From Eubacteriales bacterium (GTDB lineage: Bacteria; Bacillota; Clostridia; Oscillospirales; CAG-272): a DNA stretch of 64,000 nucleotides. The DNA is taken from NCBI GenBank assembly GCA_045128515.1, contig JBGVRO010000027.1, positions 1,148 through 65,147 on the forward strand, read 5' to 3'. The notes under the pieces are model-generated. The model was not told the DNA's origin, ran no database searches, and saw only the letters and a list, made by a program, of their open reading frames with translations. The stretch's first letter is position 1, and each line of letters opens with the position of its first letter. Of this stretch, positions 5,670 through 32,750 are shown piece after piece. The position numbers and the translations under genes are program-made.

Positions 5670-6470
5670 TTATGGGAGATAGTTCTCAAAAATGATTCCG
5701 TCAAAGCCGTTTTTACGGGCAATCGCCTCATCCTCAGCCGAGCGAACGGTCCAAGCGATAGTAGGTACCTTGAAGAAGGCACGCACGAAGCGAAGTCCGA
5801 ATGCGTTTGCGTGTCTGTGATCATAGGCGATAAACGCGGGACGGCAAAGGAAATTAAGCAGAAGCGACTGAAGTAGGAAGAACAGAGGCTTTCTCGACTT
5901 TTCATACTCGTAATAACGGTGAGAAAGAATTCCGCGAGGAATCTCGGGATACTGCTCCTTTACCACCTTAAGCGACATGGGATTAAAGGACTCAATGATA
6001 AATTCACCCTTGTAGACCTTAAGCATTTCGCAGGCTGCATGAGACACTGTTGAGTCACCTGCATTCTCCTTAATTTCAACAAGGAGAGGAACCTTGCCGT
6101 CGACAAGTGCAAGCACGTCAGAGAACAGCGGAATACCGTCATCAGTACCAGAAAGCTTAAAGGTAGCAAGCTCATCTGCAGTGAAATCAATAACCTTTCC
6201 TTCTTTACCGCAAACACGGTCAAGGGTGTCGTCGTGGAATACCACAAGCTTGCCGTCCTTGGAAAGACGAATATCAAGCTCGATACCAAATCCACCCAAG
6301 GCGGCAGCCTTGAAAGCGGACATAGAGTTCTCTGCCCTCTCCTCGTTATGCAGACCGCGGTGAGCATAATAGAGATTTTTAAATTTTGTCATTTTTTTTT
6401 TGTTCTTCGGAGCTATCAGGAAGAGATAGATCAAGAAAAGAACAACTATCGAAATAGGAATAGCAATCAT
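5670..6470 (-). CDS. Glycerophosphodiester phosphodiesterase family protein with N-terminal anchor
   Basis: AHRGLH, ENS, IELD, VFHD, VEIK, WTV and DGIIF motifs. Confidence 0.9.
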   Translation of the reverse strand: MIAIPISIVVLFLIYLFLIAPKNKKKMTKFKNLYYAHRGLHNEERAENSMSAFKAAALGGFGIELDIRLSKDGKLVVFHDDTLDRVCGKEGKVIDFTADELATFKLSGTDDGIPLFSDVLALVDGKVPLLVEIKENAGDSTVSHAACEMLKVYKGEFIIESFNPMSLKVVKEQYPEIPRGILSHRYYEYEKSRKPLFFLLQSLLLNFLCRPAFIAYDHRHANAFGLRFVRAFFKVPTIAWTVRSAEDEAIARKNGFDGIIFENYLP

Positions 6471-6494
6471 TTTTTTAGCCTCTACAATAGAAAA

Positions 6495-7997
6495 TTAGTC
6501 GTCTGCACCACCGAGAGCTGAAAGAGCATCCTGCTTTTCCGCCTTAGCATCACCGTGTTTAACGAAGAACATAGTGATGAAGGAGAAGATTACGAATACC
6601 GTACCGAAGGAGAAGAACATTGCTCTCATACCGAATGCATCGTAAAGGATACCGGAGAGAATAGGAGCAACGATCTGCGCCGCCATAGATGCGGTATAGT
6701 AGTAACCGGTGTATTTACCAACCTCGCCACCCTTAGCAAGCTCAACTACCATGGGGAAGGAATTTACGTTAATAGTCGCCCAACCAATGCCTGCAAGAGC
6801 AAAGATAGGATACATTACTATATTCTTTACTCCTGCACCGATAAAGTTACCGATGAAGAATGCAGTAGCAAGCATTATAATACCTGCAAGAATAGTCTTT
6901 CTTCTACCAAGCTTAGATGCAATAATACCTACGGGTATGTAGGAAACGATAGCAGCTGCCTGTGCAACGATAAGCGAAAGACCGTAGTCAATATTAAGAA
7001 TAGTGGTAGCGTAAACTGTGTATTTACTTGTAATAGAGTTATAACCGATGTACCAGAGAGCAACAGATGCAAGGATAAGAAGAAGCGATGTCACCTCTGC
7101 CTTAGAGAGCGAACGCTTTTCTCCACCTTCCTCAACCTTTTCCTCAAGGCCGAGAGCAATAGACTCTTCTTCCATCTCAGACGCCCACTTCTTTTCCTTA
7201 ACGGTAAGAAGGAATACGATAAGACCGATAAGCATTACGCTACATACGAGAAGGACGTAAGAGAAGTAGTGCATATAAAGCTTGCTGGAGGTGCTCATAA
7301 CAGTGCTAAGCACGAGAATGATGATACCGCCTGCAGTACCCATAAGGTTGATGATAGCATTAGCCTTGGAACGAAGGGGCTTAACTGTTACGTCGGGCAT
7401 AAGAGCAACGGCGGGAGAACGGAAGGTTGCCATTGCGATAAGCACGAGAAGAAGAACTGCCATAAAGCCAACAAGAGGCCATACGTTAGACATGGTGATC
7501 TCACGAGCCTCGGCAACGAGGTTCTCCTTGATAGCATTAAATACCTTCTCCGCCGCATCTACACCGAGATCCTTGGTCTCCTGGCTGATGAGACCTGCCT
7601 TAAGCTGATCCGCAAGGGTTGATTTAGTAGCATTGAAAGCTTCAAGAGCATTGTTATAAGCATCAACTATACCTGCATCCTTAAGAGCCTCAAGCTGAAT
7701 ACCGTTAACAAAGGTAAGTGCGATAAAGGAAAGAACTGCGGCAACCGTACCTATTACAATAAAGGGAGTACGTCTGCCAAACCTGGTCATGATCTTATCC
7801 GACAGTGCTCCGAAAAGAGGAAGCATAAACACGGCAAGAATATTGTCAATAGACATAATAAAGCCGGAAATACTGTGAGGAAGACCGTAGTGGTTGTTAA
7901 GTGCGAGCGGCACGATTGCGTCGTATGCCTGCCAGAAGGCAGAAATCAGAAAGAACGCAAAGCCCACAAGTATGGTTCTTTTGTAGTTCAGTTTCAT
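6495..7997 (-). CDS. MFS sugar transporter (MalT/SLC45-like)
   Basis: About 12 TM; GALSD...TRFGRRTPF, RSPAVALMPD and G.YTGYYY motifs. Confidence 0.85.
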   Translation of the reverse strand: MKLNYKRTILVGFAFFLISAFWQAYDAIVPLALNNHYGLPHSISGFIMSIDNILAVFMLPLFGALSDKIMTRFGRRTPFIVIGTVAAVLSFIALTFVNGIQLEALKDAGIVDAYNNALEAFNATKSTLADQLKAGLISQETKDLGVDAAEKVFNAIKENLVAEAREITMSNVWPLVGFMAVLLLVLIAMATFRSPAVALMPDVTVKPLRSKANAIINLMGTAGGIIILVLSTVMSTSSKLYMHYFSYVLLVCSVMLIGLIVFLLTVKEKKWASEMEEESIALGLEEKVEEGGEKRSLSKAEVTSLLLILASVALWYIGYNSITSKYTVYATTILNIDYGLSLIVAQAAAIVSYIPVGIIASKLGRRKTILAGIIMLATAFFIGNFIGAGVKNIVMYPIFALAGIGWATINVNSFPMVVELAKGGEVGKYTGYYYTASMAAQIVAPILSGILYDAFGMRAMFFSFGTVFVIFSFITMFFVKHGDAKAEKQDALSALGGADD

Positions 7998-8092: not shown

Positions 8093-8189
8093 ATAAATAT
8101 ATAGTAAATGTCAATAAAATATATAGCAAATATCGATAAAATAATAAAAACTCCCGAAAAAAGCGAAAAATTCGCATCTTCAGGAGCTA

Positions 8190-8720
8190 TTAAATATACT
8201 TTTTTACCCTATCAACCAAATTACCTGCCACAATACCGATCACAACACCGGCAATTGTGCCCGAAAGAATAAGAGGAATAATGTAGACTGCAATAGCAGT
8301 AGTTTCCATAACTATGCAGGCTGCAATAATCTGACCTGCATTGTGACATACACCGCCTGCAACCGATATACCGACAGAGGAAAATCTATCAAGCTTCTTA
8401 AGTAAGATCATTACCAAAAGAGCAAGTGCCGCACCCGAAAGGCTGTATATCAGGCTGACAAAATTGCCGAACAACAGAGCAGACAAAAATACTCGCACAA
8501 CCGAAACACAGATGGCATACGGCCAACCCAGAGCATAGAGTGCAAATACAGTAGCGATGTTTGAAAGTCCGACCTTAACACCGGGTACCGCAACAAATGC
8601 AGGTATCATCGACTCTACGTAAGAAAGTATCATTGCCACGGCAATAAGAGCAGACAGGGTTACAAGCTGACGGGTCGTAAGCTTTTTACCAATCTTCAGG
8701 GAAAATTTCCTATCAGACAT
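8190..8720 (-). CDS. Gx transporter / heptaprenyl diphosphate synthase component I family (EetB-like)
   Basis: LSYVESMIP, PGVKVGLSN, YSLSG, S.AGGVCHNAGQ motifs; multi-TM. Confidence 0.85.
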   Translation of the reverse strand: MSDRKFSLKIGKKLTTRQLVTLSALIAVAMILSYVESMIPAFVAVPGVKVGLSNIATVFALYALGWPYAICVSVVRVFLSALLFGNFVSLIYSLSGAALALLVMILLKKLDRFSSVGISVAGGVCHNAGQIIAACIVMETTAIAVYIIPLILSGTIAGVVIGIVAGNLVDRVKKYI

Positions 8721-9099
8721 CTACGATTCCCTCCCCCTCGCCAACGATCTCGACGATAATTTTGTTAGGAAGGCAAACGATCGTCTGTCCAACGTAGGAG
8801 ATCCTGCCGGCATTAACACATCCGTTTTTTGAGAATTTATCCGGACAGTTAGCCTCGCGCATATAAGCCTCACCGTTTTCGATTACAAGAACATTACTGC
8901 CGTTATTGATGTAAAATACACCGTCAATGTCAAGAGGATATTCTGCCACCTTAACACCGTCAACCGAAACCTCGGCAACAGCGCCCTCCTCTCTCGTAAG
9001 GAAAACAAAAAGCAAAACGGAAAGGCTGATGATCAGAAGAATGCCAACAAGAATAATATCCGAACGAAGCTTTTTGTCTTCAAGAAATTTCTTAAGCAT
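8713..9099 (-). CDS. NusG domain II-containing (DUF1312) membrane-anchored protein (EetA-like)
   Basis: N-terminal TM; ANCPD...CV..G.I...GQTIVCLPN motif; overlaps the Gx gene start. Confidence 0.85.
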   Translation of the reverse strand: MLKKFLEDKKLRSDIILVGILLIISLSVLLFVFLTREEGAVAEVSVDGVKVAEYPLDIDGVFYINNGSNVLVIENGEAYMREANCPDKFSKNGCVNAGRISYVGQTIVCLPNKIIVEIVGEGEGIVDV

Positions 9100-9164
9100 T
9101 TTCTTTTTCCTTTCCGTTTTGTTTTAAAATGTAAATAATTGTTTGCGTTTTATAGCATTTTATA

Positions 9165-9251
9165 TAATTTTGATAAAGTGCGAAGATTTTGGGGCGACAG
9201 GCGTAGAAATCTACGTCGAGCCCCAAAACTCTAAAGCAATTTACAAAATTA
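9165..9251 (-). repeat. Dispersed structured element, copy directly after the rnfB stop codon
   Basis: Minus strand: TAATTTTGTAAATTGCTTTAGAGTTTTGGGGCTCGACGTAGATTTCTACGCCTGTCGCCCCAAAATCTTCGCACTTTATCAAAATTA; homologous to 40311-40399. Confidence 0.85.
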
Positions 9252-10070
9252 CTCGAAGTGAGTTCCGCAGGTGAAGTTTTCGAGGTGAATACACTTCTTA
9301 GGACATACCTGCTGACAGGATCCGCATCCTGTACACTTTTCGTAATCGATTACAGCAAGGTTGTTTACTACCTTGATTGCGCCCTCGGGACAGGTCTTCT
9401 GGCACTTCATACAACCGATACAACCGTTGGAGCAAGCCTTGTTTGTTACAGCACCCTTATCATTGCTGGAGCACTTAACAACTACACGGGTAGATTCGCT
9501 TACGATATGAATAATGCCGTTAGGACAAGTCTTTGCACAAAGACCGCATCCTATACACTTGGTAGGATCGACGTCTGCAACACCGTTTTCGGGGTTGATA
9601 GTAATTGCATCCTTAGGACATACTGCGATACAATCGCCGTAGCCAAGACAAGCGTAGGTACATACGGTATCACCGGAGTAAGAGAGCTTTGCTGCCTTAC
9701 AGGACTTAGTTCCGTCGTAAACGTACTTTCTGTCCTCAGGCTTACAATGACCGTTACAAGCAACGTAAGCAACCTTTGCATCAACGTCACCTGCTGCAAG
9801 ACCTACGATCTCACCAATCTGAGCTGCAACGTCAGCGCCACCGGGGATACAGAGGCTGGGGTTATCGCACTCGCCCTCACCGAGAGCCTTAGCATAACCG
9901 TCACAGCCCGAATAACCGCAGGCACCACAGTTAGCGCCGGGAAGGCAGTCACGAACAGCAACGACCTTCTCATTTTCCTTAACTGCAAAGAAGCTTGCAG
10001 CAAGGGTAAGAACAATAGCACAAATAAGAGCAATCAGCGCAAGAACGCCTAAAGCAATGAGTATTTCCAT
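9249..10070 (-). CDS. rnfB: Rnf complex subunit B (polyferredoxin)
   Basis: LPGANCGACGYSGC plus several CxxCxxCxxxCP motifs; last gene of rnfCDGEAB. Confidence 0.95.
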   Translation of the reverse strand: MEILIALGVLALIALICAIVLTLAASFFAVKENEKVVAVRDCLPGANCGACGYSGCDGYAKALGEGECDNPSLCIPGGADVAAQIGEIVGLAAGDVDAKVAYVACNGHCKPEDRKYVYDGTKSCKAAKLSYSGDTVCTYACLGYGDCIAVCPKDAITINPENGVADVDPTKCIGCGLCAKTCPNGIIHIVSESTRVVVKCSSNDKGAVTNKACSNGCIGCMKCQKTCPEGAIKVVNNLAVIDYEKCTGCGSCQQVCPKKCIHLENFTCGTHFE

Positions 10071-10082
10071 TTTCTTACCTCC

Positions 10083-10688
10083 TTAATTCATGCCGAGCAT
10101 ACCGTCGATAACGCCTGCAAATCCGTAGAATGCAAGAGAAACGATAGCAGCAGCGATAAGAGTTGCGGGAAGACCCTTAATAGCCTTAGGAGCAGGACAG
10201 TTATCGGTCTTGGAACGAACACCTGCGAAGAGAACCATTGCGAAGAGGAAGCCGAGACCTACACCAAGAGAGGAGAGGAGAGCGGTTCCAAAGTTGGTTA
10301 CGTAGTCGTAGGAAAGGTTGTCGATTGCGATACCAAGCACTGCACAGTTGGTAGTGATAAGAGGAAGATATACACCGAGAGACTTATAAAGCGCGGGAAT
10401 AAACTTCTTTAAGATTATCTCAACGAACTGAACGAGAGCTGCGATAACGAGAATGAATACGATGGTCTGAAGATATTCAAGCTTGAATGCCTCAAGAACA
10501 TGCTTCTGGATAGGATAGGTAACCGCGGTAGCAACGAGCATTACGAAGATAACTGCTGCGCCCATACCTGCTGCCTGGTCAAACTTCTTGGAAACTCCGA
10601 GGAAGGGACAAATACCGGTTGTCTGCTGAAGAACGTAGTTATTCGCAAAAACACCAACCAAAATGATATAAAGTAATTCTTTTAACAT
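10083..10688 (-). CDS. rnfA: Rnf complex subunit A
   Basis: GICPFLGVSK and YLPLITTNCAVLG motifs. Confidence 0.95.
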   Translation of the reverse strand: MLKELLYIILVGVFANNYVLQQTTGICPFLGVSKKFDQAAGMGAAVIFVMLVATAVTYPIQKHVLEAFKLEYLQTIVFILVIAALVQFVEIILKKFIPALYKSLGVYLPLITTNCAVLGIAIDNLSYDYVTNFGTALLSSLGVGLGFLFAMVLFAGVRSKTDNCPAPKAIKGLPATLIAAAIVSLAFYGFAGVIDGMLGMN

Positions 10689-11450
10689 TTATGCTTCCTC
10701 CTTCTTATTTTCTACGAGAGTGTTATTCTCGCTTGCAGAAACGAGCTCTGCATTTTCAGAGCAGGAAACTCTGCCACAGATAGATGCGGAGGGACAACCC
10801 TCGCAGGAGAAGTTCTTTCTCTTTTCAGCGCCCTTCTTAGGACCGATAACGTTAACGATAGCGATAAGGATACCGTAAACAAGGAAGCCACCGGGAGCTG
10901 CAGTAAGAATAGGAATGTTGTACTCACAGAGTACGGGAATCTTGATAGCCTCAAGGCCGAGAGCATCAAGGTTGATCATACCTGTACCGAAGATCTCTCT
11001 GATAAACGCCATAAGGAAGAGAGCAATAAGGAAACCGAGACCCATGCCGAGACCGTCGAGTGCGGAATCAAGGGGCTTGTTCTTTCTTGCAAACATCTCT
11101 GCTCTACCAAGAATGATACAGTTAACAACTATAAGTGCAAGCCATGTACCAAGCAGACTGTAAATATCAGGAAGGAATGCCTGAAGAAGCATCTGAATAA
11201 TGGTAACGAAGCCTGCGATAACTACGATGTAGCAGGGGATACGAACTGTATCGGGAATGATTTTTCTAAGAAGCGAAATAAGTGTGTTGGAGCAGATAAG
11301 AACCAGGGTTGCCGCAATACCCATGGATATTGCGGAAACGATGCTGGTGGAAACTGCGAGTACGGGACAAGTACCAAGGACGAGAACGAGAACGGGGTTC
11401 TCAGCAATAAGACCCTTAAGTACGATCCAAAGCTTGCTGTTCTTATTCAT
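10689..11450 (-). CDS. rnfE: Rnf complex subunit E with Cys-rich C-terminal tail
   Basis: ENP..VL.LG.CP.LA, LIVVNCIILGRAE and PGGF motifs; tail CEGCPSASIC. Confidence 0.95.
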   Translation of the reverse strand: MNKNSKLWIVLKGLIAENPVLVLVLGTCPVLAVSTSIVSAISMGIAATLVLICSNTLISLLRKIIPDTVRIPCYIVVIAGFVTIIQMLLQAFLPDIYSLLGTWLALIVVNCIILGRAEMFARKNKPLDSALDGLGMGLGFLIALFLMAFIREIFGTGMINLDALGLEAIKIPVLCEYNIPILTAAPGGFLVYGILIAIVNVIGPKKGAEKRKNFSCEGCPSASICGRVSCSENAELVSASENNTLVENKKEEA

Positions 11451-13333
11451 TAGTTGGTACCTCCTTCAATAATTTCGATAGCGGTGAAGCAACGAAGAAT
11501 AGCTTCCTTATAACCGCCGGTAGTATTGGTAGTTCCTGCAACGGTATCAACTTCACCTGCTTCTGTCTCATTCTTACCAATGAAGTTAGAGTTGTACGCG
11601 CCATCCTCAAGCTGAGGACCACCCCATGTGGGAGTCTCCTTGTGGCTGATAGTCTGAGAATCAATGATAATGCCGTCAGCAGAAATAGAAACCTTAATAG
11701 TATAACGCTCACCGGATGCGTGCTCGTGGCTGGGATCACCCTTCTTACCGTGACCGTCACACTGGATCTCGATAACGTAGTTGCCGGTTGCGGTCTTCTG
11801 AACGGAATTGATAACTCTGAAGATTCTTCTGATATCTGTAGCAACTCCGGACTGGTTGTACATAGAAACGTCAATGTCTGTAAGCTGAGTTGCAGATACG
11901 ATTGCAACAGCAGCCTCTGCAAGAGCATTGTTCTCGTTGTCGCCAAGAGCAACACCGTCAGAGCCAACACCGATGAATGTACCGGTAGAATCAGTACCGA
12001 TCACACATACGTAGCCTGCACCGTTGGTTGCCTCGTAGATCGCATCAAAGCCCTCAACGATCTCAACCATAAACATCTTGGTGAATTCACCCTCACCTGC
12101 AGGAAGAGCTGCGTCAAGTGCGTCAGCAAACTTCTCTTCCTCGGTTCTGGTATCAACCTCTTCACCGCTGAGGATCTTAGCAACGCTGAATGCGTTGAGA
12201 ATTGCGTTCTTATAAGCAGTAGTGGTAAATGTAACACCTGCAACGATATCAACACCACCTGCTTCTTCTTCATTCTTGCCAATGAAGCTTGCATTGAACT
12301 TGCCGTCCTGAAGATGAGTACCACCGATGTTATCGGTTTCTGCATGAGAAACGGTCTGAGCATCAACTATCTTGCCTTCTGCATCAATAACAACCATAAC
12401 AACGATGGGAGTATCAGCAGTATAGTTACCGGAGGTCTTGATTTCGATTACGAATGTACCTGCGCCGGTCTTCTTTACAGAATTTACATAATTTGCAATA
12501 AGAGAATTATCCATATAAGGAGTGAGGTCTACGTCAACGGTTACGTTAGCCTTAACGCTTGCGATAGCAGCCTCAGCAAGAGCCTTATGCTCTGCACTCA
12601 TCTCACCAACTGCCTTGCCATCTGCATCAACGCCAAGGAAGATACCTGTAGAATCGGTACCGATTACGCAAACGTAACCCTTACCGTTTACCGCCTCGTA
12701 AACAGAGTCAATACCTTCAATAGCAGAGAGAAGAACAACCTTGGTGAATTCCTCACCACCCTCGGGAAGAGCTGCCTCAAGAGCATCCTGGAACTTCTCC
12801 TCCTCGGTACGGATATCAACAGAGCCACCACCGAGAATGGTCGCGGTATTGATAGCGTCCTTAACTGCAGCACGGTATGCGTTAACTGTAAGGCTGGTTG
12901 CACCTGCCTCAACGTCTACGATAGAGTTGATGTCGGAGCCTACAACCTTATCACCCATACCACCCTCAAGACCCCAGGTCTCGTTGGATGCGATACAGGT
13001 AGCACCGGTTACTACACCCTCGTTGGATACACCAACGATAATGATCATACCGCTTGCATAACCCTTGGTCTCAAGCTTGATAGCGTAGCCCATGCCACTC
13101 TTTTCTTTTTTAGCTTCCTTTACAGTCTTAGGAAGTGTGTACTGGGAGAGATCAACAGTTTCAAATCCGGTTGCGCCCTCCATAACGCTGAAGTAAGCCT
13201 CGTTAGCAGCCTGCTCAAGTCTGTCTGCAATAATGGGAGCAGTAACAGAGTTAACAGCCGCAAGAACGGTAGCGAATACAGCGCAAATTATTACAAGGAC
13301 AAGGACGTCCTTTAAAGATTTCTTAAAATCCAT
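11450..13333 (-). CDS. rnfG: Extended Rnf subunit G with three FMN-binding modules (627 aa)
   Basis: Lies between rnfD and rnfE; N-terminal TM and RnfG domain (ETWGLEG, AGAT); two further ~221-aa repeats ending in D.VAG.T.TT. Confidence 0.85.
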   Translation of the reverse strand: MDFKKSLKDVLVLVIICAVFATVLAAVNSVTAPIIADRLEQAANEAYFSVMEGATGFETVDLSQYTLPKTVKEAKKEKSGMGYAIKLETKGYASGMIIIVGVSNEGVVTGATCIASNETWGLEGGMGDKVVGSDINSIVDVEAGATSLTVNAYRAAVKDAINTATILGGGSVDIRTEEEKFQDALEAALPEGGEEFTKVVLLSAIEGIDSVYEAVNGKGYVCVIGTDSTGIFLGVDADGKAVGEMSAEHKALAEAAIASVKANVTVDVDLTPYMDNSLIANYVNSVKKTGAGTFVIEIKTSGNYTADTPIVVMVVIDAEGKIVDAQTVSHAETDNIGGTHLQDGKFNASFIGKNEEEAGGVDIVAGVTFTTTAYKNAILNAFSVAKILSGEEVDTRTEEEKFADALDAALPAGEGEFTKMFMVEIVEGFDAIYEATNGAGYVCVIGTDSTGTFIGVGSDGVALGDNENNALAEAAVAIVSATQLTDIDVSMYNQSGVATDIRRIFRVINSVQKTATGNYVIEIQCDGHGKKGDPSHEHASGERYTIKVSISADGIIIDSQTISHKETPTWGGPQLEDGAYNSNFIGKNETEAGEVDTVAGTTNTTGGYKEAILRCFTAIEIIEGGTN

Positions 13334-14280
13334 TATTTGCTACCTCTCTTTCCGAGAGCACGAGGTTTAGTCCAGCCCTCAATGTAAGGAGAAAGAATGT
13401 TCATAAAGAGAATTGCGAAGGAAACACCCTCGGGATAGTTACCGTAGAATCTAATAAGGAAGGTGATAAGACCGCAACCGAATGCGAAGATCATCTTGCC
13501 TGTACGTGTGATAGGAGTGGTAACGTAGTCGGTTGCCATAAATACTGCACCGAATACAAGGCCGCCACCGAGCACCTGATAAAGAGCAAGGTTAACGTCG
13601 CCTGTTACGATGAGAGAAAGAAGGAATACGGTAGCAACCATAATAAGAGGAGTTTCAAAGTTGATAACCTTACGTGCTACAAGATAGATGAAGCCGAGAG
13701 CAAGCGCGATCATACAGGTCTCACCGATAGAGCCGCCTCTTGTACCAAGAAGCATATCAACGATAGAGGGAAGCTCCTCACCCTTAGCAATTGCCTCAAG
13801 GGGAGTTGCACCTGCAACGAGATCGGGATTGAAGGCATGCTTGGGAGCAACGCCGCCTGCAAGAGCTCCGCTGAAGCAAACGAGCATAAATACTCTACCT
13901 GTCGCAGCAGGGTTAGCAAAGTTTGCACCAAGACCACCGAAGAGGCACTTAACGACTACGATAGCGAATACCGAGCCGAGAACGCACTGCCATACGGGAG
14001 CATCAGCACGAAGGCTGAGACCGAGGATAAGGCCGGTGATAATTGCGCTGAAATCAAATACTGTCTGTTCCTTCTTAACAGCAAGGTTGAAGAGGAACTC
14101 GGAAACTACAGCAGTAAGTACGCAAGTAAATACTACGAGCAACGCACGGATACCGTAGATAATTGCACCTGCAACAACAGCAGGAAGAAGTGCAATGATA
14201 ACGTCCAGCATAAGTCTGGGAGTATCGTGCTTAGTTCTGATGTGAGGGGAGGATGAAACTATAAGCTTATTCATTTTCAC
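13333..14280 (-). CDS. rnfD: Rnf complex subunit D
   Basis: SSSPHI, FGGLGAN.ANPA, AGATPL (FMN-Thr), FMATDYVTTP and YPEGVSFAIL motifs. Start is GTG 14280 or ATG 14274. Confidence 0.95.
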   Translation of the reverse strand: MKMNKLIVSSSPHIRTKHDTPRLMLDVIIALLPAVVAGAIIYGIRALLVVFTCVLTAVVSEFLFNLAVKKEQTVFDFSAIITGLILGLSLRADAPVWQCVLGSVFAIVVVKCLFGGLGANFANPAATGRVFMLVCFSGALAGGVAPKHAFNPDLVAGATPLEAIAKGEELPSIVDMLLGTRGGSIGETCMIALALGFIYLVARKVINFETPLIMVATVFLLSLIVTGDVNLALYQVLGGGLVFGAVFMATDYVTTPITRTGKMIFAFGCGLITFLIRFYGNYPEGVSFAILFMNILSPYIEGWTKPRALGKRGSK

Positions 14281-14289
14281 ATTACCTCC

Positions 14290-15612
14290 TTAGTTTTTCT
14301 TAGAAGCCAGCGTAGCACGCAGGTCATTCTTTGCAAGCTTGTTGTTTTCAACAAGAGGACGGCGAGAGGGACAAGCATAAGAGCAGCTGCCGCAATCAAT
14401 GCAGCTAAGCACGTTTTCGCTCTGAAGCATAGCCGCGCGCTCGTTCTTATCCTCGATCTTCATCGCCTTAACGAATGCAGTAGGATTAAGTCCCATAGGA
14501 CAGTGTGCAACGCACTTGCCGCAATGGATACAGGGATACTGAGTCTTAGGAAGAGAATCCTTAACGTTAAGAGCAAGAAGCGCGTTGGTGTTCTTATAAA
14601 TGGGAGCGTCAAGATCGTATGCCGCAATACCCATCATAGGACCACCGTAAAGCACCTTGCCGAGATCCTCAAAATCAGCATCACAGAAGGTAAGAACATC
14701 TCTAATGCTTGCACCAACGGGAACGTAAACGTTCTTGGGAGACTTAACAGCAGAACCGTCAACGGTAACGTGTCTCCAGGTATAGGGACGTCCTGTCTCA
14801 AGATAATCTGCCATAAAAGCAACCGACGTAACGTTGAACATTACGCAGCCAACGTCAGAGGGAAGCTTGCCATCAGGAATGATTCTGCCGAGAAGGGTGT
14901 AAACAAGGGTCTTCTCTGCACCCTGAGGATACTCAGAGGGAAGAGCAACAACCTTAACCTTGGGATCACCTGCAAACTCCTCGGTCATCTTCTTGATAGC
15001 CTCGGGCTTATTCTTTTCGATAGCAACGATGATCTGCTGAGGGCCGGGTATATACTCCTCAATAACCTTAACACCGCGAGCTACGTGATTTGCAGCATCG
15101 ATCATAGTACGGTTATCAACTGTGATGTAAGGCTCACACTCTGCACCGTTGATGATAATGGTGTCAATATTCTTGCTGATAGCGTTTTCAAACTTGTTAG
15201 CTGTGGGGAAGCCTGCGCCTCCGAGACCAACAAGACCACTCTCACGGATTGCCTGACAAAGCTCCTCCGCATTTGTAACAACGGGGGGAGTAATACCGGG
15301 ATCCAAGGTCATTTCTCCATCAGACTCAATGGTAATAGCCTGACAGGTCTTACCGTTAGCAAGAAGGAAGTCTCCAATCTTCTTAACGGTACCGGATACA
15401 GGGGAGTGGATAGGTGCACTTACCTTACCGTCTGCCTCTGCAACCTTTGTTCCAACACAGACCTTATCGTTTACCTTAACGACAGGAATAGCGGGCGCAC
15501 CGATATACTGAGACATAGGCAGAGTGATGACTGTGGGAGTCTGCATCTGGCTTGCTGTCATATCAGCGGTATGCTTTCTGTGAGGAAGTTTGATTTTTCC
15601 TAATTTAGACAT
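14290..15612 (-). CDS. rnfC: Rnf complex subunit C
   Basis: GLVGLGGAGFPT, NGAECEPY, YPQGAEK, GGPMMG and two 4Fe-4S motifs; start moved to ATG 15612. Confidence 0.95.
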   Translation of the reverse strand: MSKLGKIKLPHRKHTADMTASQMQTPTVITLPMSQYIGAPAIPVVKVNDKVCVGTKVAEADGKVSAPIHSPVSGTVKKIGDFLLANGKTCQAITIESDGEMTLDPGITPPVVTNAEELCQAIRESGLVGLGGAGFPTANKFENAISKNIDTIIINGAECEPYITVDNRTMIDAANHVARGVKVIEEYIPGPQQIIVAIEKNKPEAIKKMTEEFAGDPKVKVVALPSEYPQGAEKTLVYTLLGRIIPDGKLPSDVGCVMFNVTSVAFMADYLETGRPYTWRHVTVDGSAVKSPKNVYVPVGASIRDVLTFCDADFEDLGKVLYGGPMMGIAAYDLDAPIYKNTNALLALNVKDSLPKTQYPCIHCGKCVAHCPMGLNPTAFVKAMKIEDKNERAAMLQSENVLSCIDCGSCSYACPSRRPLVENNKLAKNDLRATLASKKN

Positions 15613-15712: not shown

Positions 15713-15741
15713 ATAATAGCACAACTGTACTTAAAAGTCAA
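15713..15741 (-). promoter_or_regulatory. SigA-type promoter of the rnf operon
   Basis: TTGACT-17bp-TATTAT with extended TG on the minus strand. Confidence 0.6.
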
Positions 15742-15863
15742 GTGGATAAGTTTACAAATTAACCATTTATTATTTACAAATGTAAATAAAATAGGAAATT
15801 TTGACACAAAAGGATAAAAAAAGAGGCTGTCTAGCTGCGACAACCTCTTAAAATCATATTGAA

Positions 15864-16409: not shown

Positions 16410-16862
16410 ATGAATTCAAAAGACAAGAAATCGTTAATTAAACAATTTTCACCGGGTTCATCAATTTTAAAAAATTCTTTGTTAGCTTTTCTCTTTGGAG
16501 GCGCAATTTGTGTCATAGGACAGCTACTTTCGTTGCTGTACAGCTATCTTGGACTTGATAAAAAAACCGCAGGAACGCTTGTTACGGTAACCCTGATTTT
16601 TCTTGCGGCACTACTGACAGCACTCGGTATTTTTGATAAAATAGCCCGTCATGCCGGTGCAGGAACTCTGGTGCCTGTAACAGGATTTTCTAACGCAGTA
16701 GTCAGTCAGGCAATGGATGCCAAAAGCGAGGGTTACGTGCTTGGAGTAGGAGCAAAGATCTACACAGTCGCAGGCCCGGTAATTCTCTACGGTCTGTTAT
16801 CCGGTACGGTTTATGGGTTGATTTACTATATTTATCTCGTTGTGGAGGAGATGATGCGATGA
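16410..16862 (+). CDS. spoVAC: Stage V sporulation protein AC
   Basis: AFLFGGAIC.IGQ, AGAGTLVPVTGFSN, EG.VLGVG and AGPVILYG motifs. Confidence 0.92.
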   Translation: MNSKDKKSLIKQFSPGSSILKNSLLAFLFGGAICVIGQLLSLLYSYLGLDKKTAGTLVTVTLIFLAALLTALGIFDKIARHAGAGTLVPVTGFSNAVVSQAMDAKSEGYVLGVGAKIYTVAGPVILYGLLSGTVYGLIYYIYLVVEEMMR

Positions 16863-17866
16863 AACGAATTACAAGGCTGAAAACACCAATTCATTTCAAA
16901 AGCTGGGCTGCGGTTGGTGGCTACGAGGAAAGACGAGGACCGCTGGGAGAAAAATTTGATTTTTGTGACACCTCGGACAAGTTTGGACAAAAGACGTGGG
17001 AGCTTGCGGAAGCAGAGATGGGCAGAGTTGCACTTAACACTTCCCTCTCCAAGGTAAGCTTATCTCACAGCGACGTAGAGCTTCTAATAGCCGGAGATCT
17101 GCAAAATCAGTGCGTAGCCTCGTCGACCGGTCTATCAAGCTTCGGTATTCCCTTTTTAGGTGTATACGGTGCCTGCTCCACCTGTACCGAATCGATAATG
17201 ACGCTGTCATCCTTCATTGATTCATCCGAGGATATGCAGATCGGCGCGGCACTTACTACCTCCCACAATGCGGCTGCCGAAAGACAGTTCCGAACACCGA
17301 TCGAATACGGAGGACAAAGATCTCCCACAGCACAGTGGACGTCGACTGCCGCAGGAGCATTCATTCTTGCGAGAGGATACGGAGAGGTTATGATAACCGA
17401 ATATATGCCCGGCAGGATCGTTGACGGCTCTACCTCCGACGGAGCAAATATGGGCGGAGCTATGGCATTCGCCGCCTTCGACAGTATCAGCGCATATTTT
17501 ATGGAATCGGGTGAGGATATACGAAGCTTTGATTACATCGTGACGGGAGATCTCGGTAAGGTTGGATCTAACATTTTGAAAGAACTTTTATCCAAGGAGC
17601 TGCCCGGAACGGAGGGATTACACACCGACTGCGGACTTTTGCTGTACGATTTTCAGAATCAGGATGCACACAGCGGAGCATCGGGCTGTGGAACGTCGGC
17701 ATCTGTACTTGCATCTCACTTTTTGCCACTTTTAGCAGAGAAAAAAATACACAAGATCCTATTCCTGTCAACAGGCGCACTGATGAGTCCGTCAAGCCTG
17801 CTGCAAGGAGAAAATATTTACGGCATTGCGCCACTAATAAGACTTGAGTCGGGAGAGAAACAATGA
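16859..17866 (+). CDS. spoVAD: Stage V sporulation protein AD
   Basis: AGDLQNQC, YGACST, ERQFR.P.EYG, TGDLG, SGCG and TGALMSP motifs. Confidence 0.95.
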   Translation: MKRITRLKTPIHFKSWAAVGGYEERRGPLGEKFDFCDTSDKFGQKTWELAEAEMGRVALNTSLSKVSLSHSDVELLIAGDLQNQCVASSTGLSSFGIPFLGVYGACSTCTESIMTLSSFIDSSEDMQIGAALTTSHNAAAERQFRTPIEYGGQRSPTAQWTSTAAGAFILARGYGEVMITEYMPGRIVDGSTSDGANMGGAMAFAAFDSISAYFMESGEDIRSFDYIVTGDLGKVGSNILKELLSKELPGTEGLHTDCGLLLYDFQNQDAHSGASGCGTSASVLASHFLPLLAEKKIHKILFLSTGALMSPSSLLQGENIYGIAPLIRLESGEKQ

Positions 17867-18234
17867 CGATGACCGAGCAGATTTTTTTAACCTTTATTTC
17901 AGGTGGAATTATATGCGTTATTGCCCAGTTGCTGATAGATCTTACAAAGCTCACACCTGCAAGAATTCTCGTAAGCTACGTGTCGGCAGGCGTGTTTATT
18001 TATGCTGTGGGAGCATACGAGCCAATGTTTGAGATCTTCGGGGCGGGGGTATCCGTACCCCTTATCGGATTTGGCGCAAATATAGCGCGCGGTGTGAAGG
18101 AGGCGGTAGAAAAAGAGGGACTTATGGGTGTTCTCACAGGTGGACTTACTGCATCGGCTGCAGGTATTACCGCAGCCCTTCTTTTCGGTCTTTTCGCCTC
18201 GTTTTTATTCAAATCAAAGTCCAAAAGAATGTAA
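17863..18234 (+). CDS. spoVAE: Stage V sporulation protein AE(b)
   Basis: GGIICVIAQLLID.TKLTPARILV and GAG.SVPL.GFG motifs. Confidence 0.92.
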   Translation: MTMTEQIFLTFISGGIICVIAQLLIDLTKLTPARILVSYVSAGVFIYAVGAYEPMFEIFGAGVSVPLIGFGANIARGVKEAVEKEGLMGVLTGGLTASAAGITAALLFGLFASFLFKSKSKRM

Positions 18235-18290
18235 ACTATACTTTAAAATCAACCCCATAATTTATGTAAATGTTTTTTTACAGATTTATA

Positions 18291-18319
18291 TTGATTTTTT
18301 CTATTATATATGTTATAAT
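18291..18319 (+). promoter_or_regulatory. dnaA promoter
   Basis: TTGATT-17bp-TATAAT with extended TG. Confidence 0.65.
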
Positions 18320-18367
18320 ATATTGTATTATTATAATTGTATGAGTATTTAGAAAGGAAAAATCAAG

Positions 18368-19774
18368 ATGAACGAGCTTTTTGAAATATCAATGGCGATG
18401 AAGGAAGAGCTCAGAGCAAGATTAGGCTCTCCACAATCCTCCTTTGACCTTTGGTTCGGTGATTTTAATCTCACCTCTCTCGATGAAAGCCGTGCGGTGT
18501 TCTCCACCCCCACGAAGCTGAGAAAACAGATTCTCTCAACAAGATATATTTCGCTTATCAGCGAGGTTCTTACAGACGTCATCGGTTTCTCTGTTGAGAT
18601 AGAGATCTTCTCTCTCGATGAGGACAGCGGCTTTACTCCGGGCGCGTCTGCTCCCGTTGAAAATATGGATAAGCATTTTGAAAAGGATGCGCTTAAAAAG
18701 AGCGAGCGCAAGGAAAAGAAAATAGAGGAAATTCTTAACACCGCATCATCGGATAAGAAATCTCTGCTTGACGAATACACCTTCGATAACTTTATTGAGG
18801 GAGAGTCAAACAAGTTTGCCAAGGCGGTTTGTTACGCCGTTGCAAACGACATTTCCTACTGCAATCCTCTCTTCCTTTACGGTCATTCGGGACTCGGTAA
18901 GACTCACCTTCTCTACGCGATCATGAATCATATGAAGAAGAAGGATCCCGACCTTAAGATCGTTTACAAAAAGAGTGAAACCTTTATCAACGAGCTTATC
19001 GACGCGATTTCTAATCATTCCACCTCCGAGTTTAAGGAAAAATACCGCTCGGCAGACGTGCTTATGATTGACGATATTCAGTTTATTGCAGGTAAGGAAT
19101 CCACACAGGAGGAGTTCTTCCACACCTTCTCTGCCCTCTATGAGGCGGAAAAGCTGATCATACTCACCTCCGACCGTCCTCCCAAGGAGATCAATCCCTT
19201 GATGGACAGACTCCGTACCAGATTTGAGTGGGGTCTTATCGCAGACATTCAGCCCCCCTCATTCGAGTTAAGACGCGCGATCATCAAGAAAAAGAGCGAG
19301 GATATGGGTCTTACCTTCCCCCCTCACCTTATCGACTACATTGCCGAGCGTCTTAACAACAACATAAGACAGATCGAGGGAATTCTTAAGAAGCTTTACG
19401 CTATCCACTCCTTCACAGGTCTTGAGATCACCAAGGAATCTATCGACAACGTTATTTCCATCGTTGATCCCGGTAACATTCCCACCGACGCTATGGTGGA
19501 AAAAATTCTTCATCACGTCAGCAGAAAGTACGGTGTATCGGTTGAGGACATTAAGTCCAAGAAAAAGACCGACAGCATCGCAGGTGCAAGACATATTTCA
19601 ATCTACATAATCAGAAAGCTTACCGACCTGTCGCTTAAGGAAATAGGAAAGATATTCGGCAGAGATCACTCTACGGTTATCTCATCCATCAACAAGATAG
19701 AGCTTAATATTAAGACGGTTAAGAATTACGAGGGTGAGATCAACCTTCTTGTAAAAGAAATTAAGGATAATTAG
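18368..19774 (+). CDS. dnaA: Chromosomal replication initiator DnaA
   Basis: YTFDNF, Walker A GHSGLGKT, IDDIQF, QEEFFHTF and RDHSTV motifs. Confidence 0.98.
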   Translation: MNELFEISMAMKEELRARLGSPQSSFDLWFGDFNLTSLDESRAVFSTPTKLRKQILSTRYISLISEVLTDVIGFSVEIEIFSLDEDSGFTPGASAPVENMDKHFEKDALKKSERKEKKIEEILNTASSDKKSLLDEYTFDNFIEGESNKFAKAVCYAVANDISYCNPLFLYGHSGLGKTHLLYAIMNHMKKKDPDLKIVYKKSETFINELIDAISNHSTSEFKEKYRSADVLMIDDIQFIAGKESTQEEFFHTFSALYEAEKLIILTSDRPPKEINPLMDRLRTRFEWGLIADIQPPSFELRRAIIKKKSEDMGLTFPPHLIDYIAERLNNNIRQIEGILKKLYAIHSFTGLEITKESIDNVISIVDPGNIPTDAMVEKILHHVSRKYGVSVEDIKSKKKTDSIAGARHISIYIIRKLTDLSLKEIGKIFGRDHSTVISSINKIELNIKTVKNYEGEINLLVKEIKDN

Positions 19775-29715: not shown

Positions 29716-30386
29716 TTTACACTATAATTTCTACTATTCAGAAAAATGAAATAGAAGAAAACAGGGACTGTCGTGCTTTGCGACAGCCCCTACCCCTTTT
29801 ACCAAAGGAAATTAATGACCTTATTAAAAATACAAAACATGAAAAATTAAGAGATGAGCGCCGTATTGCATATACTTCCCTGCTCTCTGGTCTTAAGGCA
29901 TTTTTTAATATAGATAATGCCACCGTTTTCAAGGACCGTGAGGGAAAGCCTTACTTGGTTTATGATACAGAGAATCACCCTGAAATACATATCGGTATTT
30001 CTCACAGTGAAGGTATGGTAGCGGTCTCATTATCCGATGAGGGTGAGATTGGTGTAGATATACAGCGCAAAATACCTGATAAATTAGTTGAAAGACTAAA
30101 CAACAGATTTTTCGGTGATATAGAGGTACACAGCGAGGATATTGGAATAAAATATTATTTCTGTTACGTATCCGAAAATGAGGCTTTGTTTGAGGAGATG
30201 ATCCTCGAGAATGCAGACCACAAGGAATATACTACAAGATGGGCGTACTCAGAGTCTATATTGAAACTGTATGGCAAAGGATTTGGTAATTATATTATCC
30301 TGCCTGAACTTGTAAAACAAAGCAAAAGCGAAACTAAAAAATCTACTGATAATTCATGGATTATCACAAATAGTATAAAAATGTAA
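29712..30386 (+). CDS. Divergent Sfp-type 4'-phosphopantetheinyl transferase superfamily protein
   Basis: GKPYL, ISHS, IGVDIQ and W...ES.LK..GKG motifs. Confidence 0.7.
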   Translation: MIYTIISTIQKNEIEENRDCRALRQPLPLLPKEINDLIKNTKHEKLRDERRIAYTSLLSGLKAFFNIDNATVFKDREGKPYLVYDTENHPEIHIGISHSEGMVAVSLSDEGEIGVDIQRKIPDKLVERLNNRFFGDIEVHSEDIGIKYYFCYVSENEALFEEMILENADHKEYTTRWAYSESILKLYGKGFGNYIILPELVKQSKSETKKSTDNSWIITNSIKM

Positions 30387-30398
30387 ATAATAGATTAC

Positions 30399-30445
30399 AA
30401 AAAATACACGAATTAAAGGATAATACCAAAAATTCGTGTATTTTT
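30399..30445. terminator. Bidirectional terminator
   Basis: AAAAATACACGAATT...AATTCGTGTATTTTT between convergent genes. Confidence 0.7.
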
Positions 30446-30457
30446 ATTTTAAATTAT

Positions 30458-31351
30458 TTAGTTGTCGTTAAGAAAATCACTTCCGCAAAGAAGCTTTAAA
30501 ATCTCGTCAAGATCCTCGTTATCCTCGTAGGATAAGGTGATTGTTTTCTTTCTTCCCTTTCCGTCGATCTTGACCTTTCTGCCAAGGTGACTCTGAACCC
30601 TGATTTCAAGCTCATGGAAGTAGTCTACCAAAGGAAGCGGTTCTTCATCCTCAACAGTAGGCTTCTGAGGCTTGTTAGCAAGCTTTACAAGGTTTTCAAG
30701 AACACGAACAGAGAGATCCTCTTCAACAGTCTTCTGCGCAAGGAGGATCATCGCATCCTTGTCTTTAACTCCAAGTAAAGTACGCGCGTGACCTGCACTA
30801 AGCTCGCCCGAAGCAACCATGGTAAGAACCTCCTCGGGAAGATCAAGAAGACGAACTGCGTTTGCAATCGCACTTCTGCTCTTTCCTACCTTCTGCGAAA
30901 GCTCCTCCTGAGTCATATCGTACTCCTCAGCAAGTGCCTTGTATGCAAGAGCTTCTTCAATGGGATTAAGATTTTCACGCTGGATGTTTTCGATAAGAGC
31001 GATTTGTGCCGCTTTCTTATCATCGCGATCAAGAACTATTGCAGGAATTTCGGTAAGGCCTGCAAGCTTTGATGCTCTGAAACGACGTTCACCTGCAATG
31101 ATCTGGTATCTTCCGTCACCGTATTCACGTACAAGAATAGGCTGAAGAAGACCGTTCTCACTGATAGATTCAGCAAGCTGCTCGAGAGCCTCTTTATCAA
31201 AATGCTTTCTGGGCTGATCGCGCTTAGGATCAACGAGAGATATTTTAAGCTTTGTAATTTTTTCTTCGCTATGCACTGTTTCCTCGACAAGAGTGTTGTC
31301 AAGGAAAATCGCGTCAAGGCCTCTGCCAAGGCCGCTATTCTTTTTTGCCAT
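30458..31351 (-). CDS. parB: Chromosome partitioning protein ParB/Spo0J
   Basis: GLGRGLDA, QPRK.F, AGERRFRA, ENIQRENLNP and HTH motifs. Confidence 0.97.
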   Translation of the reverse strand: MAKKNSGLGRGLDAIFLDNTLVEETVHSEEKITKLKISLVDPKRDQPRKHFDKEALEQLAESISENGLLQPILVREYGDGRYQIIAGERRFRASKLAGLTEIPAIVLDRDDKKAAQIALIENIQRENLNPIEEALAYKALAEEYDMTQEELSQKVGKSRSAIANAVRLLDLPEEVLTMVASGELSAGHARTLLGVKDKDAMILLAQKTVEEDLSVRVLENLVKLANKPQKPTVEDEEPLPLVDYFHELEIRVQSHLGRKVKIDGKGRKKTITLSYEDNEDLDEILKLLCGSDFLNDN

Positions 31352-31429
31352 GGTATTCTCCTTTATGTAATTAAGGTAATTTCATTTGTATTGATAAAAA
31401 ATAAATCTGGTAAATAATAGCATATAGTA

Positions 31430-31570
31430 TGTTGAAAAGTTTTTAACACCAAGATTTTGCAATTTTTATTGAAAATTCAAGGAAAATCAGGAATATTATT
31501 CAGTGAAATAATAATATAACACAGCAAAATAACAACTTATCAACATTGTTAACATACAAAATGTGGAAAA
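31430..31570. promoter_or_regulatory. DnaA-box-like cluster between parA and parB
   Basis: TGTTGAAAA (31430), TTTTTAACA (31440), TTATCAACA (31537), TTGTTAACA (31546), TGTGGAAAA (31562). Confidence 0.6.
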
Positions 31571-31636
31571 CTATACGATAGAGCAGCAATAAATTACCAT
31601 ATTTTACCAAATGATACTAATAATGACACAAATTGA

Positions 31637-32398
31637 TTAAATTCGCATCATCAGCTCTTTTGCCACTGCAGCATACTCTAAAGAACCCTTTCCGTAGGGA
31701 TCGTGGTAACAAATAGGCTCACCGTAGCCGGGAGCTTCGGAAATTCTTACTGTTCTTGAAATCGGAACCTTGAAAAGCTTATCTGCATAGTACTTTTTAA
31801 GCTCTGCAACAACCTGTCCGGTCAATGTAAGGCGTCCGTTATACATTGTGAGAAGAATTCCTACTACCTGAAGCGTAGGATTATAAAGTGTTTTGATCTT
31901 TTTTACTGTATTTAAGAGCTGTGACATACCCTCAAGCGAGTAGAATTCGCACTGCATAGGAATTACAACACCATCTGACACAGATAAAGCCTTAACAGTA
32001 AGCATACCGAGCGAAGGAGGACAGTCGATAAATATGTAATCATAGTCATCCTTAATAGAATCTAATGCTATTTTAGTGAAATTAAGGTTCTCATCAAGCT
32101 CCTGAAGTTCAATTTCAGCCCCTGCAAGCTCAATATTAGCTGCAATTACTGATAAATTCTTAAATCTTGTCTTAATTATAGCCTCAGAGATGTCACATCT
32201 GCCTATAATAACGTCATATGTAGTGTTTTTTATCTTAGATTTTTGTAATCCAAGTCCACTTGTAGCATTTCCCTGAGGATCCATGTCAATCATGAGCACT
32301 TTTTTGCCTTTATTAGCAATCTGTGCTGCAATATTGACACATGATGTTGTTTTACCAACACCGCCCTTCTGGTTAGAAAAGGATACAACCTTTGCCAT
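31637..32398 (-). CDS. parA: Chromosome partitioning ATPase ParA/Soj
   Basis: NQKGGVGKTT, DMDPQGNAT, IDCPPSLG and EAPGYG motifs. Confidence 0.97.
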   Translation of the reverse strand: MAKVVSFSNQKGGVGKTTSCVNIAAQIANKGKKVLMIDMDPQGNATSGLGLQKSKIKNTTYDVIIGRCDISEAIIKTRFKNLSVIAANIELAGAEIELQELDENLNFTKIALDSIKDDYDYIFIDCPPSLGMLTVKALSVSDGVVIPMQCEFYSLEGMSQLLNTVKKIKTLYNPTLQVVGILLTMYNGRLTLTGQVVAELKKYYADKLFKVPISRTVRISEAPGYGEPICYHDPYGKGSLEYAAVAKELMMRI

Positions 32399-32458
32399 TT
32401 TAACCTCCAATATCTTTCTTTTAAAAAGAAATCCTGTTTTTTATTATTATACATAGAT

Positions 32459-32487
32459 ATTATACTATAAAATATGATATTTGTCAA
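32459..32487 (-). promoter_or_regulatory. parA promoter
   Basis: Perfect TTGACA-17bp-TATAAT on the minus strand. Confidence 0.8.
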
Positions 32488-32530
32488 TCGATTTAGCGTA
32501 AAACATTTATATTTCTAACTAAATCTATAT

Positions 32531-32688: not shown

Positions 32689-32689
32689 A

Positions 32690-32718: not shown

Positions 32719-32750
32719 TGTGGTGTAATAAATGAAAAAAAGGTGTTTAT

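Follow-up and report, generated by a model that had tools for sequence, protein, structure and literature searches.

The stretch of DNA analysed here (64,000 nucleotides, hereafter the window) belongs to an Eubacteriales bacterium (NCBI GenBank assembly GCA_045128515.1, contig JBGVRO010000027.1, positions 1,148 to 65,147 of the forward strand). Between positions 8190 and 15705, with rnfC counted as an open frame, it holds eight genes in line on the minus strand, in the order rnfC-rnfD-rnfG-rnfE-rnfA-rnfB, a gene for a NusG_II-domain protein, and a gene of family PF07456; these last two are called EetA-like and EetB-like in the following. Our best overall explanation is that the row forms one unit, in which an Rnf pump of the ferredoxin:NAD+ type is joined to flavin-loading helpers and in which the extra flavins predicted on an enlarged RnfG make an outward branch for electrons. 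We assign this explanation a probability of about 0.5. The genes are as follows.

14290..15612, minus strand: rnfC, 440 amino acids (aa; 440-446 aa in relatives), likely start ATG at 15612 after GGAG, frame open from 15705
13333..14280, minus strand: rnfD, identified by Pfam and NCBIfam, with VAGATPL at the expected flavinylation site
11450..13333, minus strand: rnfG, 627 aa, three FMN_bind domains
10689..11450, minus strand: rnfE, identified by Pfam and NCBIfam
10083..10688, minus strand: rnfA, identified by Pfam and NCBIfam
9249..10070, minus strand: rnfB, polyferredoxin type, 273 aa
8713..9099, minus strand: EetA-like gene, 128 aa, one membrane helix (residues 10-39) and a NusG_II domain (PF07009, 89.3 bits, cut-off 29.6)
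8190..8720, minus strand: EetB-like gene, 176 aa, PF07456 (136.9 bits, cut-off 30), an ECF-S-like polytopic membrane protein

The six rnf genes give the complete set of Rnf subunits. RnfC carries the Complex1_51K, RnfC_N and 4Fe-4S dicluster (2x4Fe-4S) domains of Pfam and scores 437 bits on the NCBIfam model TIGR01945 (cut-off 246), and the other NCBIfam scores amount to 284 bits for TIGR01946 (cut-off 207), 219 for TIGR01948 (213), 232 for TIGR01943 (229), and 107 for TIGR01944 (69). The 627-aa protein has the N-terminal anchor and the FMN_bind domain of an RnfG subunit, and its gene takes the place between rnfD and rnfE. From rnfC to rnfB the genes are tightly spaced, overlapping by one base or lying no more than 12 nt apart; a spacer of 149 nt follows rnfB, and the EetA-like and EetB-like genes overlap by 8 nt. 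The PF07456 protein shows several hydrophobic segments and, in Pfam, also a sub-threshold ECF_trnsprt match. An earlier note on this DNA, made from the letters alone and referred to below as the original prediction, had placed these genes exactly, in strand and coordinates, and the rnfC start at the ATG yields the length seen in relatives. Pfam likewise bears out its three FMN_bind stretches in a 627-aa protein at the rnfG position. Its families FMN_bind and NusG_II were both recovered with Pfam, but the name 'Gx transporter' was not, NCBIfam giving only a sub-threshold ECF-S match (TIGR04518, 27.5 bits, cut-off 60). By the operational definition of EetB used in PMC9973259 (in part), a match to PF07456, the gene belongs to the EetB family.

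RnfG is ca. three times its usual length, since the chains in solved structures have 187-207 residues and the single-FMN_bind-like frames of relatives 170-244 aa; this agrees with the statement of the original prediction that RnfG is normally a subunit of ca. 200 aa with a single FMN (flavin mononucleotide). In the present protein the ectodomain begins with a canonical FMN_bind domain and continues with ca. 460 residues that form two tandem modules, residues 170-393 and 394-627 (ca. 225 aa each), 50% identical to each other (E 1e-66). Hidden Markov models (HMMs) made from an alignment of homologues split each module into a domain of ca. 90 residues, 'X', and an FMN_bind domain of ca. 120 residues, 'F', which gives RnfG the architecture F-X-F-X-F:

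13223..13321, minus strand: membrane anchor, residues 5-37, the sole strongly hydrophobic segment (Kyte-Doolittle maximum 2.84), within a helix 3-50 in the structural model
12830..13156, minus strand: FMN_bind domain 1, residues 60-168, canonical, with D140-V-E-A-G-A-T146 (T146 codon 12896-12898)
12548..12814, minus strand: spacer X1, residues 174-262, built as helix, four strands, helix, and without a flavinylation motif
12170..12532, minus strand: FMN_bind domain 2, residues 268-388, with D362-I-V-A-G-V-T368 (T368 codon 12230-12232)
11891..12151, minus strand: spacer X2, residues 395-481, delimited by HMM and model
11468..11833, minus strand: FMN_bind domain 3, residues 501-622, with D596-T-V-A-G-T-T602 (T602 codon 11528-11530)

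Multi-flavinylated proteins, defined by Meheust et al. 2021 through more than one extracytosolic FMN-binding domain, are recognized by at least two PF04205 domains behind a signal or anchor, and RnfG has three FMN_bind stretches behind one N-terminal hydrophobic helix. We hold the annotation of the locus and the module anatomy of RnfG, both read from the sequence, with high confidence.

The AlphaFold2 model of RnfG (30-sequence alignment) reaches a mean predicted local distance difference test score (pLDDT) of 82.6 and a predicted template modelling score (pTM) of 0.49, and it therefore offers confident domains with no confident mutual arrangement, in the manner of 'beads on a string'. The top Foldseek matches of this model are the RnfG chains of Acetobacterium woodii (9eri_G, E 1.3e-5, 30% identity) and Clostridium tetanomorphum (7zc6_G, E 2.1e-5, 29-30%); NqrC chains and the SaFMN3 domain (8p2a, rank 12, TM 0.64 on the target) appear lower in the list. 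The spacer X aligns weakly with the sheet half of FMN_bind (hhalign probability 60%, E 8.6e-5). Folded alone (pLDDT 75.7) and compared by VIA-align with 48,161 representative chains, it finds RnfG 7zc6_G as its best match (Z 5.8, root-mean-square deviation 4.3 A, 88 aligned residues), with NqrC and Thermotoga maritima RnfG also among the top ten rows, five of which are RnfG or NqrC; a Z of 5.8 lies in the range of common arrangements, and the assignment to RnfG/NqrC is not firm. Because the structural and hhalign scores are low, we go no further than to regard X as probably a stripped-down FMN_bind-like domain without the flavinylation motif.

A protein search in which 8,000 candidates were scored returned 1,862 proteins at E <= 1e-5, whose lengths cluster at ca. 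390-415, 600-640, and 840-850 aa. Among the query and its 120 best hits (121 proteins) the architectures are FXF (64), FXFXF (47), FXFXFXF (4), and other or partial (6). By this comparison of sequences the family expands by whole X-F modules, of which the relatives carry one to three. The 851-aa form (locus L010) carries as its added module a copy of module 1 that is 74% identical, and therefore a younger duplication. RnfG frames in the window's own genus range from 172 to 628 aa and include the further architectures FF and FFF. Long RnfGs (491-627 aa) of another build occur in the same genus at loci L058 (G005:C123), L053 (G013:C33), and L057 (G027:C170); they carry three or four FMN_bind-like domains, with no X as a domain of its own, and in L057 the X matches overlap the F domains. 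Since long RnfGs of differing build occur in one genus, RnfG has been lengthened more than once and in different ways. The RnfG ectodomain is, judged from these alignments, evolutionarily labile, with the X-F module as one of several routes of growth.

ApbE attaches FMN to the last residue of the motif D-x-x-[S/T]-G-A-[S/T] (PMC12052999, in part). The corresponding stretches of RnfG, DVEAGAT, DIVAGVT, and DTVAGTT, have kept Asp, Gly, and Thr in all three domains. Each of 30 three-domain homologues examined, with 45-90% identity to the query, has T146, T368, and T602, and G144 and G366 are conserved at 90% or more. From these sequences the attachment of FMN at all three threonines is strongly predicted.

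Listeria EetA is presumably a NusG_II protein as well; in the literature searched no statement to that effect was found, and a database search for the EetA-like protein of the window returned only NusG_II/DUF1312 clusters. EetB of Listeria binds FAD (flavin adenine dinucleotide), resembles ECF-S, and is required, together with FmnA and the ECF ATPases, for the FAD export that feeds flavinylation by FmnB/ApbE (Rivera-Lugo et al. 2023; PMC9973259, in part). According to the same source, EetB is needed for flavinylation of PplA only when external FAD is absent, and a clean eetA deletion leaves extracellular electron transfer (EET) at wild-type level. That study, which takes PF07456 as its definition of eetB, counts 3,328 genomes in which a homologue is co-located with eetA, 2,169 in which it is co-located with apbE, and 572 genomes of Clostridia in which it is co-located with Rnf genes.

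Our own survey covered 47 loci (7 related loci and 40 cut from relatives' genomes), annotated by phmmer and by HMMs from the window's proteins and not by Pfam, so that divergent EetA/EetB copies may be missed. The pair adjoins rnf in 24 of the 47 loci, in each with the NusG_II gene preceding the PF07456 gene, and its place after rnfB is conserved in close relatives; one further locus has the EetA-like gene only (the contig ends there) and another the EetB-like gene only. Directly adjoining apbE was found in 14 of the 47. Loci that extend at least 1.2 kb beyond rnfB were taken as evaluable for the pair, which excluded L007, L011, L047, L049, L058, L063, L071, and L078. Over all evaluable loci the pair accompanies 16 of 17 long RnfGs and 8 of 22 short ones, a raw contrast that is confounded by relatedness: within the window's genus it is gone, the pair standing beside a long RnfG in 11 of 12 loci and beside a short one in 6 of 7. 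A tie of eetAB to long RnfG by co-occurrence was for this reason discarded, and the pair, about equally common beside short and long RnfG within the genus, is therefore no marker of extracellular electron transfer. The original prediction had taken the two genes together with the long RnfG as the sign of an Rnf-coupled EET system and had proposed a co-occurrence survey. This central inference lacks support: the survey found no specificity for long RnfG, and in the published part of the evidence (PMC9973259, in part) EetB is a component of a FAD exporter and deletion of eetA has no effect on EET. Its own caveat, that both small families also occur near apbE without known EET, was correct. From its neighbourhoods the pair reads as a cofactor-loading module for Rnf that travels with rnf and apbE, and by analogy with the published family we consider a role of the two genes in FAD export likely. 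When genomes are annotated, EetA/EetB-like genes beside rnf should be read as a sign of cofactor loading and not of extracellular electron transfer.

The host genome (2.0 Mb in 78 contigs, estimated to be 98% complete, with the window as its contig C27) holds one PF07456 gene, one ApbE, and one ECF-T gene (CbiQ family PF02361, G000:C40:11613-12287, 171.5 bits), and FMN_bind is matched nowhere in it except in the three domains of RnfG, so that Rnf seems to be the sole client of the flavinylation machinery. As the original prediction had noticed, the window is without apbE, the only match of the genome lying on another contig, C28. This ApbE (C28:423-1862, 479 aa) is circularly permuted: the ca. 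70 residues that normally are C-terminal (with the CPVC knuckle '...CPVCG...' and the 'FHHIID' motif) sit between an N-terminal membrane helix with a Gly-rich linker and the core, and the protein ends within a rubredoxin-like insert, at its first CxxC knuckle ('...KCSKCSW...'; Pfam Rubredoxin 30.6 bits). A relative from other assemblies (P0125, 81% identical) has the same permuted order; P0126, P0130, P0134, and P0140 have the insert in the normal order, and P0136 and P0141 are without it. Among the matches listed in a literature search on ApbE and rubredoxin, judged by titles and abstracts, nothing seemed to correspond to this arrangement.

The limits of the unit and the spacer behind rnfB show the following signals.

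15821..15849, minus strand: strong terminator-like hairpin (11-bp stem and T run) that ends the upstream 122-aa gene and forms the upstream boundary of the unit
15713..15741, minus strand: promoter-like site TTGACT-17-TATTAT with TG, 10/12 matches, upstream of rnfC, a consensus match only
9100..9248, minus strand: spacer from rnfB to the NusG_II gene, 149 nt, with a stable hairpin that lacks a T tail and is part of a dispersed palindromic repeat of ca. 85 nt
8163..8175, minus strand: weak terminator-like hairpin and T run downstream of the EetB-like gene

The next gene, of the major facilitator superfamily (MFS), is preceded by its own strong promoter-like site (8092-8064, 11/12 matches). Within the rnfB spacer the hairpin has a folding energy of -29.2 kcal/mol (z -2.48), and a weak promoter-like site lies at 9184-9157 (9/12 matches). 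The junction of rnfB and the NusG_II gene is spanned by RNA-library contigs from two studies (X15, 8737-9908, 10 differences; X17, 8942-10068, 36 differences), and that of the EetA-like and EetB-like genes by one X15 contig (8428-8754). These are assembled contigs from four libraries, which show presence and bridging and not transcript ends, strand, or level, and the bridging carries little weight, as DNA may be present in libraries of this kind; it is compatible with read-through from rnfB into the small genes and is no proof of a single transcript.

The palindromic repeat, with the core CGTAG-N-CTACG, has two copies in the window (9158-9248 and 40322-40399), 79% identical to each other; the rest of the genome holds one further partial DNA match and three more sites of the core palindrome. 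Related elements, one or two and at times in tandem, sit in the rnfB-eetA spacer of L009, L012, L055, L057, and L061, and the repeat looks like an element of the repetitive extragenic palindromic (REP) kind or a miniature mobile element. The idea of an rnf-specific regulatory element in the rnfB spacer was dropped, the hairpin being a dispersed repeat with a second copy in the window and copies in relatives. No known RNA family, riboswitches included, was found in the whole window with Rfam at gathering thresholds. Downstream of the rnf unit (5670-7997) lie the MFS transporter gene (500 aa) and a glycerophosphodiester phosphodiesterase gene (266 aa); the same two genes follow rnf in seven related loci (L006, L008, L010, L012, L055, L057, and L062), and a link to Rnf is not evident. 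A stretch at 30000-34000 of the window has a G+C content of 0.34-0.39, compared to ca. 0.45 elsewhere, with several short open reading frames on both strands, and may be a foreign island.

Near-identical DNA is present in gut and bovine-gut metagenome runs from 11 studies, and the nearest relatives of RnfG come from metagenome-assembled genomes labelled uncultured Ruminococcus sp., Eubacteriales bacterium, and Clostridia bacterium. On the opposite strand, 0.7 kb upstream of the rnf unit, spoVAC-spoVAD-spoVAEB and then a gene of the DnaA family (468 aa) occupy 16410-19774. Taken together, the spoVA neighbours, the metagenome runs, and the relatives point to a spore-forming, presumably single-membrane and thick-walled lineage of Clostridia from the ruminant gut.

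In the explanation that we prefer, rnfCDGEAB and the two small genes would be one transcription unit for a ferredoxin:NAD+ Rnf pump and its flavin-loading helpers. As published work on these families suggests, the EetB-like ECF-S protein and its EetA-like partner, with the single ECF-T and the ECF ATPases, would bring FAD to the outer face of the membrane, where the single ApbE of the genome would place FMN on RnfD and on the three threonines of RnfG. Domain 1 of RnfG would keep its usual function in the complex. The two additional flavins would reach outward on flexible links, equilibrate with the RnfG flavin, and form a side branch for the exchange of electrons, in either direction, with acceptors located in the region of the cell wall or beyond it; how far this branch reaches would depend on how many modules there are (one to three in relatives). 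Three things speak for the side branch: the modules are attached behind what is the C-terminal helix in a normal RnfG, the threonines are conserved, and the modules vary in number. Taken by itself the outward branch is a tentative proposal, to which we give somewhat less than even odds. A second path to extracytosolic acceptors had been proposed for multi-flavinylated RnfGs by Meheust et al. 2021 (PMC8238504, in part), and in the literature searched we found no experimental test of such an outward path for RnfG.

A number of observations weigh against this explanation. RnfG scores only 53.8 bits on TIGR01947, under the curated cut-off of 102, and the match spans residues 11-138 only. Position 4 of the flavinylation motif is Ala in all three domains where the consensus has Ser or Thr; evidently this is tolerated by the lineage, since the canonical domain 1, which Rnf needs, has it too. 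Position 6, Ala in the consensus, is Ala in domain 1, Val in domain 2, and Thr in domain 3, and in a model enzyme an Ala-to-Val change at the motif about halved flavinylation (PMC12052999, in part). Among 300 FMN_bind-like F domains of homologues, 247 fit the pattern DxxxGx[ST] and 53 fail, most of the latter retaining the Thr with an insertion or with the Gly lost; as the strict pattern overlooks real sites with insertions (e.g. ...KNGAT...), 247 of 300 is a lower bound for sites with the Thr in place. The spacer domains between the flavin domains argue against a closely packed 'wire', so that transfer would need motion of the domains. As candidate acceptor proteins, we found in the genome, estimated to be 98% complete, neither another FMN_bind protein nor a full-length FAD_binding_2 reductase: a search with PF00890 returned seven proteins, which match only the first ca. 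40 profile positions (the dinucleotide-binding motif), and no fumarate-reductase-like enzyme. This may leave room for small-molecule or mineral acceptors. The hairpin and the weak promoter-like site in the rnfB spacer, finally, leave a separate transcription of the two small genes possible.

Several of these points can be turned to other explanations, of which the main one is that the extra modules are flavinylated without leading electrons out of the cell. They could be a local buffer, could remove oxygen or other oxidants at the surface, or could be spare domains or structural ones that lend the complex stability within a thick wall. The soluble SaFMN3, with three flavins, is fully flavinylated, has a single midpoint potential of -184 mV shared by its flavins, and when reduced passes its electrons to O2 (Tong et al. 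2023; PMC10339131, in part). A host of the strict-anaerobe type, a spore-former of the cattle gut by its spoVA genes and the metagenome runs, would suit such a use, as would the missing acceptor protein and flavin domains that are split by spacers and have no fixed arrangement in the model (pTM 0.49). Scavenging and buffering are, however, electron exits themselves, and thus differ from the side branch in purpose only, and the variation of one to three extra modules among close relatives suits the setting of a reach at least as well. We regard this alternative as a whole as rather unlikely. Neutral decay, in which the extra modules would be slowly decaying tandem duplicates without flavin or role while domain 1 alone works, we find improbable: it could draw on the lability of RnfG length and architecture within one genus, on motif positions 4 and 6, and on the 53 homologue domains that miss the strict pattern, but the two modules, only 50% identical, both retain the full predicted fold and the Asp, Gly, and Thr, and none of 30 homologues, with identities as low as 45%, lacks any of the three threonines. 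Moreover, rnfG is free of stops and frameshifts, and the region is found in RNA-library contigs, the latter a weak point.

The version of the original prediction, in which EetA and EetB themselves stand in the electron path as in the 2018 Listeria model and connect Rnf, instead of Ndh2/quinone, with acceptors at the surface, has the position of the genes to commend it, directly after rnfB, on the same strand, and conserved in close relatives. It is nonetheless highly improbable in our estimate, given the FAD-binding, ECF-S-like nature of EetB and the wild-type EET of the clean eetA deletion (PMC9973259, in part), the presence of the pair also beside single-FMN rnf operons and apbE, and the lack of a redox-cofactor domain in either protein in Pfam.

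We therefore return to the unit of Rnf pump, flavin-loading helpers, and outward flavins as the preferred explanation. Its boldest extension, which we consider doubtful, is that the Rnf of these spore-forming gut Clostridia would act as a quinone-free extracellular electron gate, which electrons of ferredoxin or NADH would pass outward, or inward, by way of a swinging chain of covalent RnfG flavins, with spacers and module number setting the reach through the wall and with ion-coupled Rnf turnover directly linked to outside acceptors or to partner cells in the rumen. If the flavins do work outward, Rnf would offer the reducing power of fermentation a direct way out, independent of quinones, in Clostridia that are abundant in rumen and gut, with a bearing on redox balance, on hydrogen and methane output, and on interspecies electron transfer. 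The idea of an outward path has been in print since 2021, and the locus adds to it a clean case that can be dissected, with three conserved threonines, a defined module, and variants of one to three modules.

Among known systems, the multi-flavinylated RnfGs of the 2021 survey are similar in having more than one FMN-binding domain on an RnfG within a complete rnf cluster, in Gram-positive lineages, and with the same proposed role; the main text of that survey gives no anatomy of this subfamily (PMC8238504, in part), whereas here the repeating unit is a spacer-plus-flavin module of ca. 225 aa in one to three copies. The Rnf complexes of A. woodii (9eri) and C. tetanomorphum (7zc6) share the six subunits, the gene order, and the RnfG fold, but their RnfG has 187-207 residues and one FMN, while in the present protein ca. 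460 more residues follow the C-terminal helix. In Listeria monocytogenes, with EetA/EetB and FmnA/FmnB (PMC9973259, in part), a PF07456 ECF-S-like gene is likewise preceded by the gene of a small single-helix membrane protein; in contrast, the present cluster is without a dedicated FmnA-like ECF-T (one ECF-T is encoded elsewhere) and apbE is on another contig. The locus is not of the Listeria EET type, as there is no PplA-type lipoprotein (the only FMN_bind matches being in RnfG), Ndh2 and the demethylmenaquinone genes (DmkA/DmkB) not having been part of the search. The soluble proteins SaFMN3 (3 covalent FMN) and CbFMN4 (4 covalent FMN) also carry several ApbE-type FMN_bind domains on flexible links, but their domains are 84-94% mutually identical, have no spacer domains between them, and are not part of Rnf (PMC10339131, in part). 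The Rnf of Methanosarcina acetivorans with its multi-heme cytochrome MmcA resembles the present case as an Rnf with an added outward carrier of several cofactors, although it uses haem and not flavin, on a separate subunit, and in an archaeon (PMC8238504, in part). With multi-flavinylated RnfG described in the 2021 survey and eetB beside rnf in the 2023 survey, the locus is a well-dissected new example and not a new system; what is new here are details, namely the X-F module and its copy-number series, the independence of eetAB from RnfG length, and a genome in which the flavinylation machinery appears to have Rnf as its single substrate.

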